Of a DNA stretch of 64,000 bases, positions 1 to 43,845 are shown piece by piece (the stretch's first letter is position 1; each line of letters opens with the position of its first letter). Source of the stretch: Patescibacteria group bacterium (GTDB taxonomy: Bacteria > Patescibacteriota > Minisyncoccia > Moranbacterales > UBA1568); the NCBI GenBank assembly GCA_038078615.1, contig JBBTWT010000003.1:2563-66562 (forward strand), in the 5' to 3' direction. The notes below the pieces were generated by a model. The model saw only the letters and a program-made list of their open reading frames with translations. It was not told where the DNA came from and ran no database searches. A program made the position numbers and the translations under genes.

Positions 1-141
1 AAAGTTGATGCCGATACGGCCGAGGCCGCGCGCTTTTCCATCAGCGGCACGCCGGGGACGTTCGTGAACGGGACATTCCTGCCGGGCGCCGTCGGATTCG
101 ACGCCCTGAAGCAGGCGATCGATACGGAACTTGCGAAGTAA
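1..141 (+). CDS. DsbA-like thioredoxin-fold oxidoreductase, C-terminal fragment (start is upstream of the window)
   Basis: Frame 1 reads ...RFSISGTPGTFVNGTFLPGAVGFDALKQAIDTELAK, then TAA at 139-141. The GTP-x-x-FVNG segment is typical of DsbA-family C-termini. Confidence 0.5.
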   Translation, partial: KVDADTAEAARFSISGTPGTFVNGTFLPGAVGFDALKQAIDTELAK

Positions 142-193
142 AGAAAAAGCCCCCTTTGTTTTATACTCGCCGGGGCTTGGAGCGAGGTACGGA

Positions 194-1267
194 TTACAGC
201 ATCAACTGCTTTATTGCTTCCATAGCTTCTTTGACATTCGGATTGTCTTCCTTTACGCCGATCATAATGATGCAACCACCGTCAGGAGTGACCTGGGCGA
301 TGGTCGATGTCATATTGATGCCGCGGTTGCCGAATTCATGAAGAACCTTTTCCAGAAGGCCGATTTGATTCTGCTCTGCGGTAAAATGAAACGTTGCCAC
401 CGTTTGCCGCATATCCGCTTCCAAACGGGCCAGTTGCTTCGTGGAAGCATCCCAAGCTTCGAGATTTTGCGGGTCAATTGAGTTTCTCACCGTTTCCAGT
501 ATTGTTCCCAGCGAAGCTTCATTCTTCTCGGCAATCGCATCCTTAAGTTTTTTCAGAGACTCTTGGAAAAACGCGATCAGGTGAAGGGTAAGCGGGTGAT
601 TGAGCAAGATACCGTTTATAACCTTTCCTGAAGATGCTGTGCGGAGGATCGAACGGACCATAAGCCGACAAGGTGGTCCTCCGATATTGATTCCCTTCGT
701 CACGATTTGCGAAGGAAATTGTTGCCACGAAGTTCCGATCATAAACGCTACAACCATATGCATGAGTTGACTCACGGCAGTAATATGATCGTGTTCACCA
801 GGCTCAAGACGATGGAGAAGCGGCTGGAACGGAACAAGTTCATTTTCAAGCCAATTTCTCCAGACTCCTTGATCTCTTCCGGAAATGGAGACGGATACAT
901 TCTGTCCGAACAAAGTTCTCCTCAGCGGGATTTCCGGACGAAAGTGGAAATGACAATGGCAGACGGTTATGTCCTTTTCCACAGCATGGCTCGTGTTGAT
1001 ATCGTGCGGAAAGGCCGGATTCTCGATAGACGTTCCGTGAATAAGCAACGTGCCAGATCGCATAACATCTACCGCGCGTGAAAAAAGCGAAGCGACATTC
1101 TCAATAGGCAGGGTAACAATAAAAACAGCATCTGCGATACGAGCCGCCTTCTCTAAAGTAAGTTCCGTATTGCGATCTACGCACAGCACAGAATGACCCT
1201 GCGTAGTAAAGTGTTCCACAAGCGCGCTTCCTACCAGACCACCGGAACCGATAATGGCGATGTTCAT
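194..1267 (-). CDS. tyrA: prephenate dehydrogenase with C-terminal ACT-like domain
   Basis: ORF 194..1300. Preferred ATG at 1267 is preceded by GGAG (rc of 1274-1277). Has N-terminal Rossmann IIGSGGLVG, the PDH core GEHDHITAVSQLMH, and a C-terminal ACT-like segment (IGLLEKVLHEFGNRGINMTS). Confidence 0.8.
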   Translation of the reverse strand: MNIAIIGSGGLVGSALVEHFTTQGHSVLCVDRNTELTLEKAARIADAVFIVTLPIENVASLFSRAVDVMRSGTLLIHGTSIENPAFPHDINTSHAVEKDITVCHCHFHFRPEIPLRRTLFGQNVSVSISGRDQGVWRNWLENELVPFQPLLHRLEPGEHDHITAVSQLMHMVVAFMIGTSWQQFPSQIVTKGINIGGPPCRLMVRSILRTASSGKVINGILLNHPLTLHLIAFFQESLKKLKDAIAEKNEASLGTILETVRNSIDPQNLEAWDASTKQLARLEADMRQTVATFHFTAEQNQIGLLEKVLHEFGNRGINMTSTIAQVTPDGGCIIMIGVKEDNPNVKEAMEAIKQLML

Positions 1268-1310
1268 TTTATACTCCTCATTGTTAAAGTACGCTTTCAA
1301 TTGTATGGAT

Positions 1311-1341
1311 ATACAAAAGAACGAGCCTAAAGGCTCGCTCT
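1311..1341 (-). terminator. intrinsic terminator-like hairpin in the tyrA leader (candidate attenuator)
   Basis: Minus-strand RNA reads AGAGCGAGCC-UUUA-GGCUCGUUCU followed by UUUGUAU. The stem is 10 bp with one G-U pair. It lies 44 nt upstream of the tyrA ATG. Confidence 0.5.
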
Positions 1342-1366
1342 TACTTTCTAATCGTTTTCTCGAATA

Positions 1367-1444
1367 TTACAAAGTATCACCAGCCTTTAGGAATAAAAGC
1401 TGATAATAATAAGTGGCAGTGGTATTGTTCCAGATATTTTTCAT
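1367..1444 (-). CDS. candidate 25-codon leader peptide MKNIWNNTTATYYYQLLFLKAGDTL
   Basis: ATG at 1444, TAA at 1369-1367. Three consecutive TAT codons at 1411-1403. No Shine-Dalgarno sequence. The ATG sits about where the predicted promoter would start transcription, so the mRNA may be leaderless. Confidence 0.35.
   Translation of the reverse strand: MKNIWNNTTATYYYQLLFLKAGDTL
1382..1391 (-). promoter_or_regulatory. candidate antiterminator segment
   Basis: RNA CCUAAAGGCU (end of the leader ORF) is perfectly complementary to AGCCUUUAGG (rc of 1326-1335). That target spans the terminator left arm, loop and right arm. Confidence 0.4.
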
Positions 1445-1452
1445 ATACCGAA

Positions 1453-1481
1453 AATGTAGCAAAGATTTGTCGGCGTGTCAA
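1453..1481 (-). promoter_or_regulatory. sigma70-like promoter facing tyrA
   Basis: TTGACA (1481-1476), 17-nt spacer, TACATT (1458-1453). Confidence 0.35.
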
Positions 1482-1557
1482 GAAAATAGAATTGAGTGTC
1501 CGAATTGAGAAAAATAGCGTTTTTAGCGTTTTTTTATTTACTGTTGAGCCACCTTCC

Positions 1558-1583
1558 GGAATCCCCGCCGAAGGCGGGCAGGG
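1558..1583. repeat. GC-rich hairpin element GGAATCCCCGCC-GAA-GGCGGGCAGGG
   Basis: 6-bp GC stem (1564-1569 with 1573-1578). A second small hairpin TCCGCC-TTTG-GCGGA lies at 1609-1624. It resembles the hairpin embedded in the gltX insertion (14811-14840, opposite strand). Confidence 0.4.
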
Positions 1584-1644
1584 AACTGGAGACCTACGCG
1601 TGGAGTTTATCCGCCTTTGGCGGAAGTGCGTCATAATTATTCTG

Positions 1645-1717
1645 AGCCAAGACCGGGATTCGAACCCGGGACCTATGCGTTACGAATGCATTGCTCTACC
1701 AACTGAGCTATCTTGGC
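1645..1717 (-). tRNA. tRNA-Thr (anticodon CGU), CCA not encoded
   Basis: rc reads GCCAAGA TA GCTC AGTTGGTA GAGC A ATGCA TTCGTAA CGCAT AGGTC CCGGG TTCGAAT CCCGG TCTTGGC T. This gives a cloverleaf with the T-loop GGTTCGAATCC. Confidence 0.9.
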
Positions 1718-1827
1718 ATATACCAAAACGTTGTTCAGTCTATAACATATCCGAAAAAACATCAATACCGGTATCGGGGTCGGCACCGGGCTTCTGGGAA
1801 TGGCGGTATTATGATATACTGAAAACC

Positions 1828-2920
1828 ATGAATATGACACGGGAGAAAATAGCGGTTCTTCGACAAAAACTCCTGCAGTTGCAGGACTATCTTTGACTTC
1901 GCCCGAAAGGACATCCGCAGAGCGGAACTCCGCACACAGAGCGAACGGCCGGACTTCTGGAATGATCCGAAGGCCGCCGGACGCGCGATGCAGGAACTGG
2001 AGCTTCTCCAGAGCGAGAAGGATGCCTTCGAACGACTGGAGGAGACCCTGACCGATCTCGAAAGCTTCGCGCTTCTCGAAGACCTGAAACCCGCAGATCT
2101 GAACGAGCTCGAGAGCGAATACGCGGCCGCCGAAACATCGATTAACGAATGGGAATTCAGGACGCTGCTCGGCGGGCAGTACGATGCCAAAGGCGCGCTC
2201 CTCACGGTGAGAAGCGGCGCAGGCGGCGTGGATGCCCAGGACTGGGCGGAAATGCTGCTGCGGATGTACCTGCGCTATGCCGAGAAGCAGGGATGGAAGA
2301 CGCGCCTGCTCGATGAATCGCGCGGCGGCGAAGCCGGCATCAAGAGCGCCACGATAGAGATATCCGGCGCCTACGCGTACGGCTATCTGCGCGGAGAGTC
2401 CGGCATCCATCGGTTGGTGCGCCTGTCGCCGTTCAATGCGAACAGCCTGCGGCAGACATCGTTCGCATCGGTGGAAGCGATGCCGGTCGTCGATGATACG
2501 GAAGCGGAGGCCATCCGGCCGGATGAACTGCGAATCGATACGTATCGCTCGTCGGGCGCCGGCGGCCAGAGCGTCAATACCACGGACAGCGCCGTACGCA
2601 TCACGCATATCCCGACCGGCATCGTCGCGACCTGCCAGAACGAACGTTCGCAGTTCCAGAACAAGGAAGAAGCGATGCGGATACTCCGTTCCAAGCTCAT
2701 ACAGAAACGCATCGAGGAACAGGAAGCGGAGAAACAGCAGCTGCGCGGAAAGCGGAAGAGCGCCGAGTGGGGCAATCAGATCCGTTCCTATGTCCTCCAT
2801 CCCTATACGCTGGTCAAAGATCATCGTACCGGAACCGAAACGAGCGATACGGAAAAAGTCCTGGACGGCGATCTGCAAATGTTCATCGAAAGTGAGCTTC
2901 GCTATCTACAATCGCATTAA
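1828..2920 (+). CDS. prfB: peptide chain release factor 2, programmed +1 frameshift
   Basis: Frame 0 MNMTREKIAVLRQKLLQLQDYL ends at CTT TGA C (1891-1897). The +1 frame continues DFARKDIRRAELRTQSERPDFWNDPKAAGRAMQELE... SPF (RLSPFNA) and GGQ (SGAGGQSVN) motifs are present. Confidence 0.95.
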
Positions 2921-2997
2921 TATTTACCACATCGCTTGTCATTGTCGTTCGAGAACGACGTGATGAACGAGCAACTGTGGCAAAATAAAATAAACAT

Positions 2998-3699
2998 ATG
3001 CCAGACATTCAGCCCATCATCCGTTTCGAAAACGTCACGAAGACTTTTCCGCCCGATCACGCGGTGCTCGAGCATGTCAATCTGTCCATCCAGCCGGGAG
3101 AGTTCCTCTCCATCGTCGGATCGAGCGGCGCCGGCAAATCGACCCTGCTCAAGCTGATCTATGCCGAAGAGCCGCCGACGGAGGGGGAGATCTATTTCAA
3201 CGAACGTCCCCTGGGGCAAATCAGCCGCAAGCACCTGCCTTTTTTCCGCCGCAATATCGGGACGGTATTCCAGGATTTCAAGCTGCTGCCACAGCGGACC
3301 GCCTTCGAGAACGTCGCCTATGCGCTCGAAGTCGATGGCAAAAGTACCGCTGAAATCAATGAGGAAGTGCCGGAAATTCTCGAGATCGTAGGCCTGGGCG
3401 ACAAGATGCACAAGTTCCCCAAGCAGCTCTCGGGAGGGGAACAGCAGCGCGTATCGCTCGCCCGCGCGCTCATCCATCGTCCCAAAGTGATCATCGCCGA
3501 CGAGCCGACCGGCAATCTCGACCCTGTTTCGGCCAATGAGATTATCCAGCTCCTGCTCGAGATCAATTCGTTCGGCACGACCATCCTGCTCGCGACGCAC
3601 AACAAGGGCATCGTCGACAAGCTCGGCAAACGCGTCATCCTTATCAATGGTGGCCAGATCATCCACGATCAGAGTAAGGGAAAATATATGTTACAATGA
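2998..3699 (+). CDS. ftsE: cell division ATP-binding protein FtsE
   Basis: Walker [10 protein letters not shown], signature LSGGEQQR, Walker B VIIADEP. Followed directly by ftsX. Confidence 0.9.
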
Positions 3700-3706
3700 T
3701 GGGTAT

Positions 3707-4621
3707 ATGAAAACACTCAAGCTCTGGCGCACGTTCAAGGAAGGGAAGGAGAACTTCATCCGCAACGGCTGGCTGACGTTCGCCACCGTCAGCATCCTGA
3801 CGCTGTCGCTGTTCATCGTGAGCCTCTCGTTTCTGCTCGGTATGACGACGCGGCTGATACTGGAGAATCTGCGCGACAAGGTGAGCGTGAGCGTGTCGTT
3901 CAATCCGGACGTGACGGAGTCGCGGATACTCGAGATCAGAGACGAACTGTCCAAATACAAGAAAGAGATTGTCTCTGTGGAGTATGTCTCGCGCGATAAT
4001 GCCCTGAAGCAGTTTCTTGCCGACAGCGGCAACGATCCGGTCATCGCCCAAGCCATCGAGGAAATAGGGGAGAATCCTCTTTTGGCATCGCTCGTTATCA
4101 AAGCGGTAACACCGGAAAATTATCCGCTCATCGTGGAGCAGATCCAGAAGTCGACATTTCAGAATGATATCAGCCGCATCAACTACGCCAAGAACAAGAA
4201 GATCTTCGAACGCCTCGACCGTATCAACAAGACGACAGCGAAAACCGGATTGACGCTCGGCGCCATATTCATCTTCGTCGCTATCCTCATCACGTTCAAT
4301 ACCATCCGCATCACGATTTATTCCCACCGCCAGGAATTCGAGATTATGCGTCTGGTGGGCGCTTCGAACATCTACGTACGTATGCCGTTCGTCTTCGAAG
4401 GAGCGCTCTACGGATTGGTGGCGGCGATCATCGCCACAGGATTTCTCTTCGGCATGGCATACTATATCGCTCCGCTCACAGAGGGAGCTATCCCACAAGG
4501 CAACTTCATGGATCTCTATCTCGGTTATTTCTGGGCTATCTTCGGCGGGCTGATACTGCTCGGCATCACACTCGGCGTCGTATCGAGCGCCATCGCCATC
4601 CGCCGCTATCTGAAGGTCTGA
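3707..4621 (+). CDS. ftsX: cell division permease-like protein FtsX
   Basis: In-frame ATG at 3707 (MKTLKLWRTFKEG...). Has an N-terminal TM, a periplasmic domain and three C-terminal TMs. Adjacent to ftsE. Confidence 0.85.
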   Translation: MKTLKLWRTFKEGKENFIRNGWLTFATVSILTLSLFIVSLSFLLGMTTRLILENLRDKVSVSVSFNPDVTESRILEIRDELSKYKKEIVSVEYVSRDNALKQFLADSGNDPVIAQAIEEIGENPLLASLVIKAVTPENYPLIVEQIQKSTFQNDISRINYAKNKKIFERLDRINKTTAKTGLTLGAIFIFVAILITFNTIRITIYSHRQEFEIMRLVGASNIYVRMPFVFEGALYGLVAAIIATGFLFGMAYYIAPLTEGAIPQGNFMDLYLGYFWAIFGGLILLGITLGVVSSAIAIRRYLKV

Positions 4622-40796: not shown

Positions 40797-42275
40797 ATGA
40801 AAAACTTCTCTTCCGCGCTCGTGTGGCTTACGGTCTCCGAGATCATCTACAATATTTCCGGCTATGTCATCCATTCGGCTGCCGGACGCATCTTAGGACC
40901 CGAAGAATACGGCCGGTTCGGACTCACCGTGACCTTGACCACGATGATCATCATTCTCATCGGCAACGGCATCCCGACCGCCATGTCGAAGTATCTGAGC
41001 GAGGTGTTCGAGAGCGCCCCGGAAAAGATATACGGCATCAAGCGTTCCGCTGCGAAACTCCAACTCATCCTGATGAGCTCTGTGACGATAGCATTTTTCC
41101 TCCTGGCACCGGTATTTGCCGCACTCCTCCGCGATCCGAGCCTGACCCCCTTGTTCCGGCTTTCTTCGCTCATCATCCCCGCGTTCGCAGCGGCATCGTT
41201 TTATTTCTATTATTTCACCGGCCTGCACTTTTTCCGGATGCAAGCGATACTGAAAACGTTCCGCGCATTCGCGCGCGTCGGTTTCATCGTGATACTCGCA
41301 TACCTCTTCAGCACAGAAGGCGCTATCAGCGGCTACATCCTCGCGCCGCTTCTGATATTCGTCATCGGCTTCGTCTGCGACGGCATCCTCACTAGAAAGT
41401 ATTTCCCTGCCGCGCATGAGAACAAGGCTGATTCCGCATTCTCGATGAGAACCATCCTCCAGTACGCCGGGCCGCTCACCCTGTTCCTTCTGTTCTATGA
41501 ATTCATCCTCACTCTCGACCTCTACTTCGTGAAAAGCCTCCTCCAAAGCGACTACCTCACCGGCATCTACAACGCCGCTATCACCGTCGGCCGCATTCCC
41601 TACTATCTTTTCTACGCGCTCGCCATCATCCTGCTCCCGGCCATTTCCAAATCAACATCGGAAAACGATTCTCTCGCGACAAAAAACCTCGTCGAGAAAT
41701 CCCTGCGCCTCCTGATATTCCTTCTCTTCCCGATGGTCACGCTGCTCATCGCCTATGCGCCGCAAATCCTCCATATCTTCTACGGTGCCAGGTACGCGGC
41801 CGCGGCTCTGCCGATGCAGGTCTTCGCCATCGGAGTCGGCTTCCTCACGGTTTTTTATGTCTTGAGTTTCACCCTCAATGGCGCCAACCTCGTCAAAATC
41901 CCACTGAAACTCGCGTTTTTCGGATTTCTCGGTATGATCGCGCTCAACTTCATCCTCATACCTCGGTGGGAACTGGTGGGCGCCGCCCTCGCGACAACCA
42001 TCGTCTCTTGTATTCTGATGATACGTATCCTCATCTACGTGAAGATGCATTTTCACACCCACATCTCGCTCAAGACACTCATCTTCGCTTCTCTCGGCGC
42101 CGTGATCATAGGGATAGCCGCGCGCTATTTGCCTCACGGGACATATGACTTCATGCTTTTCGGAACTATCCTCTTCTTCGCCTATTTCGGACTTCTCAAG
42201 CTTTTCGGCGAGCTGACTGAAGAAGATTTAAAACCGTTCAAAAAGATTTTTCGGAAACAAACCTCGACTGATTGA
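40797..42275 (+). CDS. Wzx-type oligosaccharide flippase (MOP superfamily)
   Basis: About 14 TM helices. N-terminal GYVIHSAAGRILGPEEYGRFGL is typical of polysaccharide biosynthesis (Wzx/PST) proteins. Confidence 0.75.
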   Translation: MKNFSSALVWLTVSEIIYNISGYVIHSAAGRILGPEEYGRFGLTVTLTTMIIILIGNGIPTAMSKYLSEVFESAPEKIYGIKRSAAKLQLILMSSVTIAFFLLAPVFAALLRDPSLTPLFRLSSLIIPAFAAASFYFYYFTGLHFFRMQAILKTFRAFARVGFIVILAYLFSTEGAISGYILAPLLIFVIGFVCDGILTRKYFPAAHENKADSAFSMRTILQYAGPLTLFLLFYEFILTLDLYFVKSLLQSDYLTGIYNAAITVGRIPYYLFYALAIILLPAISKSTSENDSLATKNLVEKSLRLLIFLLFPMVTLLIAYAPQILHIFYGARYAAAALPMQVFAIGVGFLTVFYVLSFTLNGANLVKIPLKLAFFGFLGMIALNFILIPRWELVGAALATTIVSCILMIRILIYVKMHFHTHISLKTLIFASLGAVIIGIAARYLPHGTYDFMLFGTILFFAYFGLLKLFGELTEEDLKPFKKIFRKQTSTD

Positions 42276-42362
42276 CATTTCTTCGGGAATCCTCTAGATT
42301 GACCCCATCAAGCCTGATAGGTTTGTTTGTTGTATCCACCTCAACGTATAGGAGATTCATCA

Positions 42363-43845
42363 ATGAGTACGTTTACATCCAAAGTATTTCCAACTAAGGT
42401 CATCCAGTTGGCTGGTACCAAAGAAACCATCGTTTGTGGCGGTCGCGATCAATTTCCTCTCCTGGTCAAGGGATTCCATGGAAAGAACAATATAGGTGTC
42501 ATCGGCTGGGGCTCGCAAGGTCCCGCCCAAGCCATGAACCTACGTGACTCGCTTCGCGGCACCAACATCAGGGTGAGAGTCGGCTTGCAAGCAAGACGGT
42601 AGCCCTTCGCGGGACAAGGCAAGGGCAGCCGGTTTCAACACGGAAAATGGTACGCTGGGTGAGATGTACAGCGTCATCAGTCAATCAGACATCGTCCTGT
42701 TGCTCATTTCCGATGCCGCCCAGGCCGAAAACTGCCAAGCTATTTTCTCTGCCATGAAAAGCGGCAGCGTACTCGGGCTCTCACATGGTTTTCTCATAGG
42801 TCACCTGAAAAACATCGGCGTAGCCTTGCCTAGCCACATCAATGTGATCGGGGTATGTCCAAAAGGTATGGGGGTGTCAGTCCGACGGCTCTATGAACAG
42901 GGCACGGAAATAAACGGCGCCGGCATCAATTGCAGCTTCGCGGTAGAGCAAGATATCGAAGGTGCCGGAAAAATGACTGACATCGCTCTCGCATGGGCCA
43001 TCGCTATTGGTGCCCCCTACGTTTTTCAGACGACGCTCAAGGATGAATACATCAGCGATCTTTTCGGGGAGCGCGGCATCCTTCTCGGTGGCCTCCATGG
43101 CATCGTCGAAGCACTGTATCGCCGTTTTTCTGAAAAAGACCCCTTCCACAGCTGTAGCCTTGCATTTCACCAGTCGGTGGAAAATATCACCGGTGTAATC
43201 AGCCACCATATTTCGCAAGCCGGACTCATCGACCTCTACGATAAGCTGGATGAGCAAGGTAAGAGAGTGTTCGAGAGGATATACGCCAGCGCCTATGGGC
43301 CAGCGTACGTTCTCCTCGAGGAGATCTATGACGAGGTCAGTAGCGGAAACGAAATCCGCAGTGTCATCATGGCCGGTCAAAGATTGAAGCAATACCCCAT
43401 GAGCGAAATTGGCAACACAGCCATGTGGCGAATCGGTGAGAGGGTACGAGCCGATAGATCATCTGTGGTACCCGTTGTCAACAAGTTCACTGCCGGCTTG
43501 TACTGTGCTGTCATGATGGCGCAGGTCGACGTGTTAATAAAAAACGGCCATTGCATGAGCGAGGTGTGCAATGAATCCATCATCGAGGCGACGGATTCGC
43601 TCAACCCATACATGCATGCCAGGGGCATCGCGTATCTGGTGGACAACTGCTCCACCACGGCACGACTTGGGGCACGCAAATGGGCACCGCGTTTCGAAGC
43701 GATGATAAACCAGGAAGTTTTTGTCGCGTACGACAGTCATGTAGACCGAAAGCCTATCGAGGCTTTCCACAGTCATCCGGTACATGAAGCGCTCGCCGTA
43801 TGCGCAGAGCTTCGTCCGCCGGTAAACATCTCGGTCGGTGTGTAA
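42363..43845 (+). pseudogene. ilvC: ketol-acid reductoisomerase, long plant-type class II form, interrupted by a +4 frameshift
   Basis: The N-terminal part (GWGSQGPAQAMNLRDSL...VRVGLQ) stops at 42600-42602. The +1 frame continues QDGSPSRDKARAAGFNTENGTLGEMYSVISQSDIVLLLISDAAQ...LGLSHGFL...CPKGMGVSVRRLY...NCSTTARLGARKWAPRF...VHEALAVCAELRPPV. The break coincides with the tandem CAAGCAAG at 42588-42595. Confidence 0.8.

Follow-up and report, generated by a model that had tools for sequence, protein, structure and literature searches.

A candidate tyrosine-responsive leader-peptide attenuator upstream of a TyrA-family gene in a Patescibacteria genome

The leader region and the gene downstream

We analyzed a stretch of 64,000 nucleotides (nt) from a Patescibacteria group bacterium (assembly GCA_038078615.1, contig JBBTWT010000003.1, positions 2,563 to 66,562), referred to here as the window. 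Near its start lies a gene of the TyrA dehydrogenase family, and between this gene and its promoter is a short leader with an open reading frame (ORF) and several potential RNA hairpins. A preliminary description of the same DNA had proposed that this leader is a tyrosine-sensing attenuator. All leader elements are read on the minus strand of the window, and their coordinates are collected in Table 1.

We found the promoter where the preliminary description had placed it. It matches the consensus at 10 of 12 positions, and it is conserved: the six orthologous leaders that we call type 1 (see below) share an invariant -35 element, a spacer of 17 nt, and a -10 element of the form TAnnTT. The arrangement TTGACA-N17-TAnnTT occurs three times in the window, against 0.12 expected. 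The leader ORF of 25 codons with three Tyr codons was also present as claimed, with the implied ORF coordinates off by one base. Its ATG is separated from the -10 element by 8 nt, so the mRNA would be leaderless or nearly so, with a 5' untranslated region (UTR) of 0 to 3 nt. Consistently with this, the ATG lies 6 to 9 nt 3' of the -10 element in 6/6 close orthologues, and in the more distant locus L030 a GTG lies 6 nt after it. The missing Shine-Dalgarno (SD) sequence had been counted as a weak point. We found none in front of the window ORF either, and the conserved layout, with a predicted 5' UTR of 0 to 3 nt, would account for its absence.

The leader is compact, running about 135 nt from its ATG to the end of the terminator tail in an AT-rich region. 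The terminator follows the leader stop codon after 24 nt, close to the 25 nt given earlier, and its previous coordinates were within one base of ours. As DNA, it reads AAGAGCGAGCC-TTTA-GGCTCGTTCTT, followed by TTGTATAT, and 6 of the 11 stem pairs are GC. The perfect 10-nt complementarity between the end of the leader ORF (segment 2) and the terminator (segment 3) was confirmed. A hairpin that the preliminary description had missed, H1, joins the second and third Tyr codons and the bases after them to the antiterminator strand and is present in the minimum-energy fold. H1 completes the four segments of the trp design. Thus, the trp/phe/his logic proposed earlier is supported and has to be extended by H1, the anti-antiterminator, and by a second overlooked hairpin, H2, which is nested in the antiterminator. 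H2 is predicted to stack within the antiterminator and would so keep segments 2 and 3 near each other.

A further small hairpin, H4, overlaps the terminator U-tract. Equivalents are found in L001, L018, L019, L021, and L023, and in some orthologues pairing of a U-run with an A-run lengthens it. We found no significant second copy of H4 within the window, and it is not a general motif.

Table 1. Positions of the leader elements and of the gene that they precede, in window coordinates
Feature	Position	Strand	Details
Sigma-70-type promoter	1453..1481	-	-35 TTGACA 1481-1476; 17-nt spacer; -10 TACATT 1458-1453, with TG 5' of the -10 element (TG-n-TACATT)
Leader ORF, 25 codons + TAA	1367..1444	-	MKNIWNNTTATYYYQLLFLKAGDTL; ATG 1444-1442; TAA 1369-1367
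Control codons TAT TAT TAT (Tyr 12-14)	1403..1411	-	TAT TAT invariant across type 1 leaders
H1, anti-antiterminator ("1:2" hairpin)	1376..1407	-	5' arm AUUAUCAGCUUUUA 1407-1394; loop UUCC; 3' arm UAAAGGCUGGUGAU 1389-1376
Antiterminator 5' strand (segment 2)	1382..1391	-	CCUAAAGGCU; 10-nt perfect complement of segment 3
H2, nested hairpin	1343..1375	-	ACUUUGUAAU...AUUAGAAAGU; includes the leader stop codon
Antiterminator 3' strand (segment 3)	1326..1335	-	AGCCUUUAGG; spans part of the terminator left arm, the loop, and two right-arm bases
Intrinsic terminator	1309..1342	-	11-bp stem AAGAGCGAGCC/GGCUCGUUCUU, loop UUUA, 1342-1317; U-rich tail UUGUAUAU 1316-1309
H4, small hairpin	1301..1316	-	UUGUAU-AUCC-AUACAA; overlaps the terminator U-tract; conserved
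TyrA-family dehydrogenase gene, putatively regulated	194..1279	-	357 aa, with C-terminal ACT domain; SD GAGGAG 1279-1274; ATG 1267; coding sequence to 194

The 153-nt leader folds at -46 kcal/mol, compared with -25.5 +/- 3.3 kcal/mol for shuffled sequences (z = -6.25). We also shuffled the 110 nt that precede the terminator 5,000 times, with dinucleotide composition preserved. A complement to the terminator of at least 10 nt arose in 7 shuffles and an ATG-initiated ORF with YYY also in 7, and the two never arose together (0/5,000); the same complement together with a YY ORF was likewise found in 0/5,000. The shuffles and the conservation described below rule out a chance origin.

The exact product of the downstream gene is deposited as a "hypothetical protein" of a Patescibacteria-group metagenome-assembled genome. 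A profile of 27 family members matched 2pv7, the TyrA of H. influenzae, over residues 2 to 286 (E = 2.8e-12), and the catalytic His (HPMFG), the EHD motif, and the substrate Arg (xRL motif) align with 2pv7. An AlphaFold model made from the family alignment had a predicted local distance difference test (pLDDT) score of 93.8, with residues 290 to 356 folding as beta-alpha-beta-beta-alpha. The top Foldseek matches were 5uyy (B. anthracis TyrA with its ACT domain and bound L-tyrosine), which was also the best full-length match, and 2pv7, at a template modelling score (TM-score) of 0.80. Further matches were 4wji, 3ggg, and other prephenate, arogenate, and cyclohexadienyl dehydrogenases. The profile match, the model, and the structural neighbours together place the protein in the TyrA family, whose members have an N-terminal Rossmann NAD(P) domain and a helical dimerization domain, as a predicted divergent TyrA-fold enzyme with a Bacillus-type C-terminal ACT domain. 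With this architecture, it may act on prephenate or arogenate, and tyrosine may feed back through the ACT domain.

The family is small. Clustering at 90% identity gives 38 clusters, almost all of them from either Patescibacteria or unclassified metagenomes, and the members with a labelled source are mostly Patescibacteria (Moranbacteria/Moraniibacteriota, Staskawiczbacteria, Falkowbacteria, and Saccharibacteria). In the window, the neighbours of the gene are tRNA-Thr, prfB, ftsE, and ftsX. The neighbourhoods of the orthologues differ and again consist of unrelated housekeeping genes. We concluded that the tyrA-like gene is a monocistronic orphan in a Patescibacteria genome.

Orthologous leaders and their covariation

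We collected the upstream DNA of orthologues from genome and metagenome scans and from look-ups of exact proteins. The preliminary description had suggested a comparison with relatives, and in these the Tyr-run ORF is conserved: we found nine distinct orthologous leaders, upstream of proteins with 46 to 83% identity, each with an ORF at or next to the predicted transcription start site (TSS) and with 2 to 4 tandem Tyr codons. Six of them are type 1 (the window, L023, L018/L017, L001, L019/L020, and L021/L022; proteins 63 to 83% identical). All six have TTGACA-17-TAnnTT, an ATG 6 to 9 nt after the -10 element, and exactly 11 codons before TAT TAT. The third TAT of the window is an in-frame insertion, the other five leaders encoding YY. 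Their peptides read MKNIQKNIIAVYYQLLFLKAGDTL, MKDILQNISCAYYQLLFLKAGTAL, MKNIFQNSSCAYYTGLYLLKAGSAL, MRTIQHNIAGAYYHSLSPRAGVAL, and MKNIPQNSSCAYYTGLSPKGW. The stop codon falls within the H2 5' arm; the exception is L021, which is frameshifted and stops directly after segment 2. Two of three indels are multiples of 3, and mean column identity over the whole leader is 72 to 74%. In L019, the 5' arm of H1 is different and the Tyr codons fall in the H1 loop, and TATTAT is still kept. This suggests that the codons matter in their own right.

The three distant leaders (proteins 46 to 50% identical) have other sequences and the same logic, with YYYY in two and YYHH in one. The two with YYYY, which we call type 2, are L011/L012 from Staskawiczbacteria (46% protein identity) and L030/L010 (48%). 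Their peptide contains AVSYYYYSH, encoded with TAT TAC TAT TAT. The terminator is a different one, CUGGUCUCA-UGG-UGGGAUCAG plus a U run, and the antiterminator has 11 bp, GAGGCUGGUUU/AAACUGGUCUC; both differences between L011/L012 and L030/L010 preserve its pairing. The third distant leader, L031 (46%), encodes MKQNATRTYYHHLSS with the Tyr codons TAT TAC. Its stop codon lies within segment 2, and its antiterminator, CCUAAAGGCCGG/CCGGCCUUGAGG, pairs at 11 of 12 positions.

We noted separately that the type 2 leaders (L011 2780-3000, L010 1-230, and L030 1054-1280) share about 79% nucleotide identity, against about 50% amino acid identity of their TyrA-like proteins. This excess points either to a very strong constraint on the leader or to its exchange between lineages.

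In another 13 orthologues, the promoter is plain and the 5' UTR short. None of these has a YY ORF at the promoter, and in one a YY ORF occurs within 350 nt, away from the promoter. In L025 (positions 1-61; 56% identity), TTGACA-17-TAGACT is joined straight to the conserved UUUAACAA-SD segment (CUUUAACAAC-SD), with no leader between them. This fusion suggests that the leader is a discrete module that has been gained or lost whole within the family. Searching with nhmmer, using the leader alignment against the window and all loci, we found one copy per tyrA-like gene and no extra copies; the other matches were reverse-strand echoes of the palindromic antiterminator.

Pairing and covariation were counted on an alignment of seven sequences (A4), which are related and few, so the counts are supportive and statistically not decisive. 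For the antiterminator, 95.7% of cells were paired, and three of the 10 pairs had changed on both sides. These three columns form the terminator loop, which changes from UUUA to CUCG, UUCG, and UUGG, and segment 2 changes along with it (UAAA to CGAG, for example); in L019, the strands are CCGAGGGCU/AGCCCUCGG. Since loop columns covary with segment 2, the terminator alone cannot explain the pattern. As a control, we slid the partner strand by 1 to 3 columns, and 27 to 61% of cells paired. The other helices were paired in 84.7% (H1), 95.2% (H2), 88.4% (terminator), and 97.4% (H4) of cells. H1 showed many one-sided changes with pairing kept, the closing pair of H2 changed from A-U to G-C, and the terminator, which is kept in all leader-bearing loci, had one pair altered on both sides. 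Overall, six pairs were double changed. Unprompted, RNAalifold returned a consensus of antiterminator, H2, and H4. Covariation of the alternative helices, the other feature that the preliminary description had looked to in relatives, is thus borne out by the paired cells, the three double-changed pairs, and the RNAalifold fold.

RNAalifold also returned a long-range helix of 4 bp, in which the 5' arm of H1, rich in pyrimidines, meets the SD sequence of the tyrA-like gene (A4 columns 28-31 with 156-159; window about 1397-1394 with about 1278-1275), with one covarying pair (UA:3, CG:3). This pairing might add control at the level of translation, or it might be noise.

Predicted switching and rival explanations

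We folded the leaders from the start codon to the U-tract and barred from pairing the footprint of a ribosome, approximated as -15 to +13 around the P site. In the free RNA, H1, H2, and the terminator formed together in 6/6 type 1 leaders. With the last Tyr codon in the A site, the antiterminator stacked on H2 formed in all six, and with the ribosome at the stop codon, all six returned the terminator. These constrained folds support the earlier proposal of mutually exclusive terminator and antiterminator folds selected by ribosome position. L011 also switched as predicted, through another anti-antiterminator. So did L031, whose design is simpler: it has three segments, and segment 2 is masked by a terminating ribosome and by nothing else.

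According to the model that these folds suggest, transcription would begin at the leader ATG or no more than about 3 nt from it, and a ribosome would initiate on the leaderless mRNA. When charged Tyr-tRNA is ample, the ribosome would reach the stop codon at the base of H2 and cover segment 2 and H2. With segment 2 masked, the terminator (3:4) would form, and RNA polymerase would halt before the tyrA-like gene. When Tyr-tRNA is scarce, the ribosome would stall on Tyr codons 12 to 14 and cover the 5' arm of H1. Segment 2, now free, would pair with segment 3 over 10 bp stacked on H2, no terminator would form, and the gene would be transcribed. With no ribosome on the leader, H1, H2, and the terminator would form together and transcription would end. 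What we observed are the sequence elements, how they are conserved and covary, and the energies predicted for their folds, and we consider it likely that the element is a ribosome-mediated (leader-peptide) transcription attenuator that is specific for tyrosine and controls a TyrA-family gene.

Several points weigh against this interpretation. The substrate of the enzyme is a prediction, as are the start of transcription, its termination in vivo, and both the translation of the ORF and the stalling of the ribosome on it, and the covariation counts come from the small alignment described above. In the window, the terminator keeps a slight advantage when the stall is on the first Tyr codon, and a stall on the third flips the fold. 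For L030/L010, equilibrium folding gave the antiterminator in every state and no switch, so this design would need a kinetic argument. The 5' UTR of L011 would be about 12 nt, without an SD sequence. Differences at codon positions 1/2/3 over codons 2 to 11 were 54/50/69, which is weakly coding-like, and the +2 frame is open as well; we set aside codon-position differences and open frames as uninformative on coding. The orthologue L027 (48% identity) keeps TATTAT, segment 2, H2, and the terminator and has no in-frame ATG or GTG near the promoter. The preliminary description had named hairpins conserved apart from the ORF in related genomes as a finding against the attenuator. The nine leaders keep the Tyr-run ORF, and L027 is an instance of that case. 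Its best fold is the antiterminator, and it looks like a decayed, probably constitutive copy of the leader. On the side of the enzyme, the scores for PDH_C (18.9 bits against a cut-off of 22), PRK11199 (45.6 bits against 273), and ACT (E = 1e-4) are all under the curated Pfam or NCBIfam cut-offs. The gene had been called tyrA, a prephenate dehydrogenase; the TyrA family and the ACT domain hold, and the protein is divergent, unannotated, and below those cut-offs. Pfam scans of 40 further ORFs in the 64-kb window found no other aromatic-pathway genes.

In L027 1881-4004, the tyrA-like gene adjoins two genes, one encoding GTP cyclohydrolase I and the other a radical-SAM protein; these may be folE and queE, which act in queuosine synthesis. 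The wobble nucleotide of tRNA-Tyr is modified to queuosine, which influences how UAU and UAC are decoded. A link between these neighbours and the Tyr codons is purely speculative.

We weighed four other explanations of the leader. It might be a translation-independent RNA switch (a riboswitch, a T-box-like sensor, or a protein-binding attenuator), in which the ORF is incidental and UAUUAU is kept for pairing or as a specifier. L027, with its helices and TATTAT and no start codon, is what such a switch would look like. The weak codon-position signal fits as well, and a mere spacer would need less sequence conservation than H2 and its flanks show. In addition, a conserved UGGU in the internal loop of the antiterminator form is reminiscent of the T-box UGGN bulge. 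However, the UGGU is explained by its pairing in H1, and L019 has UGGC. When we ran cmscan on window positions 1-4000 against all 4,227 Rfam 15 models at E <= 10, no amino-acid leader family was found; the sole overlap with the leader was L20_leader at 17.2 bits, against a gathering threshold of 58.7 (E = 7.2). We therefore rejected the T-box (RF00230) and the known leader families. The leader has no Stem I, specifier-loop motif, or T-box sequence, and the stretch that precedes its Tyr codons is unstructured and only about 35 nt long. Across three unrelated designs, 2 to 4 Tyr codons, the synonymous TAC among them, stand in tandem and share the frame of a start at the predicted TSS, and the stop codon is always where a terminating ribosome would mask segment 2. 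We regard a translation-independent switch as unlikely. A constitutive or leaky terminator, serving as a tRNA insulator or as a stabilizing or processing structure of the 5' UTR, would make the ORF and the complementarity mere by-products of a stretch that is AT-rich and palindromic. Just upstream there are indeed a tRNA-Thr gene and the remains of a tRNA, TAT repeats come more easily in AT-rich DNA, and the antiterminator strand looks like a near-palindromic hairpin read as its reverse complement. Yet a conserved promoter sits between the tRNA and the leader, and L019 and L021 have the same leader with no tRNA upstream. Neither the 0/5,000 joint occurrence in the shuffles nor the covariation of the terminator loop with segment 2 fits by-products, and in L025 the same promoter type is fused to UUUAACAA-SD, so that the leader appears as an added module. 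This makes a simple terminator very unlikely.

Two explanations keep a role for translation and change its nature. The peptide itself could act, by nascent-peptide or ligand-dependent arrest as in TnaC or Erm leaders or as a functional micropeptide, with the N terminus MK(N/D)IxQN...AYY as sensor or product. Among type 1 leaders, M-K/R-x-I-x-x-N and A-Y-Y are indeed fairly conserved, with synonymous changes at Ile (ATC/ATA/ATT) and Asn (AAT/AAC). Across the three designs, nothing of the peptide is conserved except the Tyr run, and L021 is frameshifted with its nucleotides kept, so the C-terminal "conservation" is at the RNA level. Dehydrogenation of prephenate or arogenate is a biosynthetic and irreversible step, which makes induction by starvation the logical polarity. 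We consider an acting peptide highly improbable. Finally, the position of the ribosome could set access to the SD sequence of the tyrA-like gene, with the hairpin and U-run not terminating at all. The 4-bp pairing between the H1 5' arm and the SD sequence, with its one covarying pair, speaks for this, but it is weak. The SD sequence lies at least 37 nt past the terminator and is not sequestered in any minimum-energy fold, and a GC-rich stem with a U-tract, the canonical form of an intrinsic terminator, is kept in every design. We give translational control almost no credence. Transcription attenuation by a ribosome at the Tyr codons thus remains our preferred explanation.

As a separate candidate, TRAP-like (G/U)AG repeats were inspected by eye and rejected: GAG and UAG triplets are irregularly spaced in the window and absent in L019.

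Other features of the window, known systems, and significance

Three further observations concern other genes of the window. Just downstream of tRNA-Thr(CGU) (1717-1644), at 1545-1632 on the minus strand, is the fossil of a second tRNA-Thr(CGU), which neither ARAGORN nor Rfam called. It keeps the anticodon stem, the variable region, the T arm, and the 3' strand of the acceptor of a tRNA that is intact in the syntenic locus L023, and it has no 5' acceptor strand or D arm. A hairpin of about 22 nt stands in place of the anticodon loop, and the T loop has gained another of about 19 nt (CCTGCCCGCCTTCGGCGGG); the same T-loop insertion is present in L018. On the plus strand, prfB, encoding release factor 2 (RF2), has a canonical programmed +1 frameshift site, CTT TGA C, at 1891-1897. 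Its N-terminal frame ends in LQLQDYL at the TGA 1894-1896, and the main PCRF/RF-1 ORF (1988-2920) is in a different frame; we assigned these domains from a syntenic locus. Also on the plus strand, 42272-43845 holds an orphan gene for an IlvC-like ketol-acid reductoisomerase (KARI) that is apparently split. The frame from the ATG at 42364 stops near 42600, and the KARI domains resume in an ORF at 42664-43845 that has no counterpart of the first 56 or so positions of KARI_N. Upstream is a promoter of the kind that precedes the tyrA leader, TTGACA-17-TAGATT (42272-42300), and a small hairpin with a U-run, CAAGCCTGATAGGTTTG-TTTGTTGTAT, loosely like the terminator of the tyrA leader; no leader ORF was evident there.

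The classical leader-peptide attenuators respond to Trp, Phe, His, Leu, Thr, and Ile/Val; for tyrosine, E. coli uses TyrR and Firmicutes use T-boxes. To our knowledge, tyrosine is a conspicuous gap among them. The element described here is like the E. coli trpL, pheA (pheL), his, leu, thr, and ilv attenuators in having a leader ORF with tandem codons for the amino acid concerned, mutually exclusive 1:2, 2:3, and 3:4 helices, a terminator before the first structural gene, a stop codon placed for the masking of segment 2, and predicted termination when the leader is untranslated. Unlike them, it would sense Tyr, has no SD sequence and an ORF at the 5' end of the transcript, carries the extra conserved H2 nested in its antiterminator, belongs to a host of the Patescibacteria, also known as the Candidate Phyla Radiation (CPR), and precedes a single orphan gene. 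The proposed mechanism is the same as that of trpL and pheL. What is new is the Tyr specificity, the phylum, the leaderless start, and the orphan, unannotated target. The tyrosine T-box, as in B. subtilis tyrS, needs no translation and binds uncharged tRNA directly by means of Stem I, a specifier loop, and a conserved T-box sequence of 14 nt. It resembles the element described here in sensing the charging of Tyr-tRNA through a terminator/antiterminator switch before a tyrosine-related gene, and it differs by those three parts, which are absent here.

The closest published designs concern other amino acids. The aroR leader upstream of aroF in C. glutamicum (Neshat et al. 2014) has a Phe-Tyr-Phe run and, according to the account in PMC11802643, responds to limitation of Phe and not of Tyr. 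It, too, is an aromatic-run leader that attenuates an aromatic-pathway gene, in a bacterium whose leader ORFs are often leaderless; unlike it, the leaders described here have pure Tyr runs (YY, YYY, YYYY) and precede an enzyme of the Tyr-specific branch. Mycobacterial polycysteine short ORFs, translated from a 5' AUG or GUG, attenuate the downstream operon in response to cysteine (bioRxiv 10.1101/834739). They are likewise leaderless short ORFs with consecutive codons for one amino acid, a likeness of design: here, the amino acid is Tyr instead of Cys, the phylum is another, the terminator is clear, and covariation supports the antiterminator. Control of aromatic amino-acid genes by an upstream ORF and a terminator has been inferred before, computationally or genetically, in Acholeplasma, where uORFC-13-1 with its Phe codons lies before aroF and regulates DAHP synthase (computationally inferred; PMC8632094), and in the proposal of attenuation for E. 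coli aroF-tyrA (Camakaris 1980), which is cited in PMC2659441 and PMC8632094 and is not known to have been substantiated or tied to a leader peptide with Tyr codons. Neither Rfam 15 nor our literature search, which had most subscription journals outside its coverage and in which absence is no proof, returned a Tyr-dedicated leader peptide, and the same search, with the same coverage, returned no report of attenuation in Patescibacteria.

The reading that joins all of this, a first Tyr-dedicated attenuator that is also the first ribosome-mediated one in the CPR, monitors Tyr-tRNA, serves tyrosine salvage, and informs annotation, seems to us evenly balanced between right and wrong. If it is true, a conserved, covariation-supported Tyr attenuator would fill the tyrosine gap and would extend ribosome-mediated attenuation to the CPR, where gene regulation is almost unexplored. 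Minimal, supposedly auxotrophic symbionts would then monitor the charging of Tyr-tRNA by coupled transcription and translation on a leaderless mRNA. The orphan TyrA-like enzyme would be a conditionally induced last step of tyrosine salvage, with prephenate, arogenate, or a related cyclohexadienyl acid from the host or community as its substrate. The attenuator would also serve as a functional annotation for a family of "hypothetical proteins": it would be independent, regulation-based evidence that this family of 38 clusters provides tyrosine to organisms for which amino-acid synthesis had been thought impossible, and it would so bear on the question of what such episymbionts obtain from their hosts.

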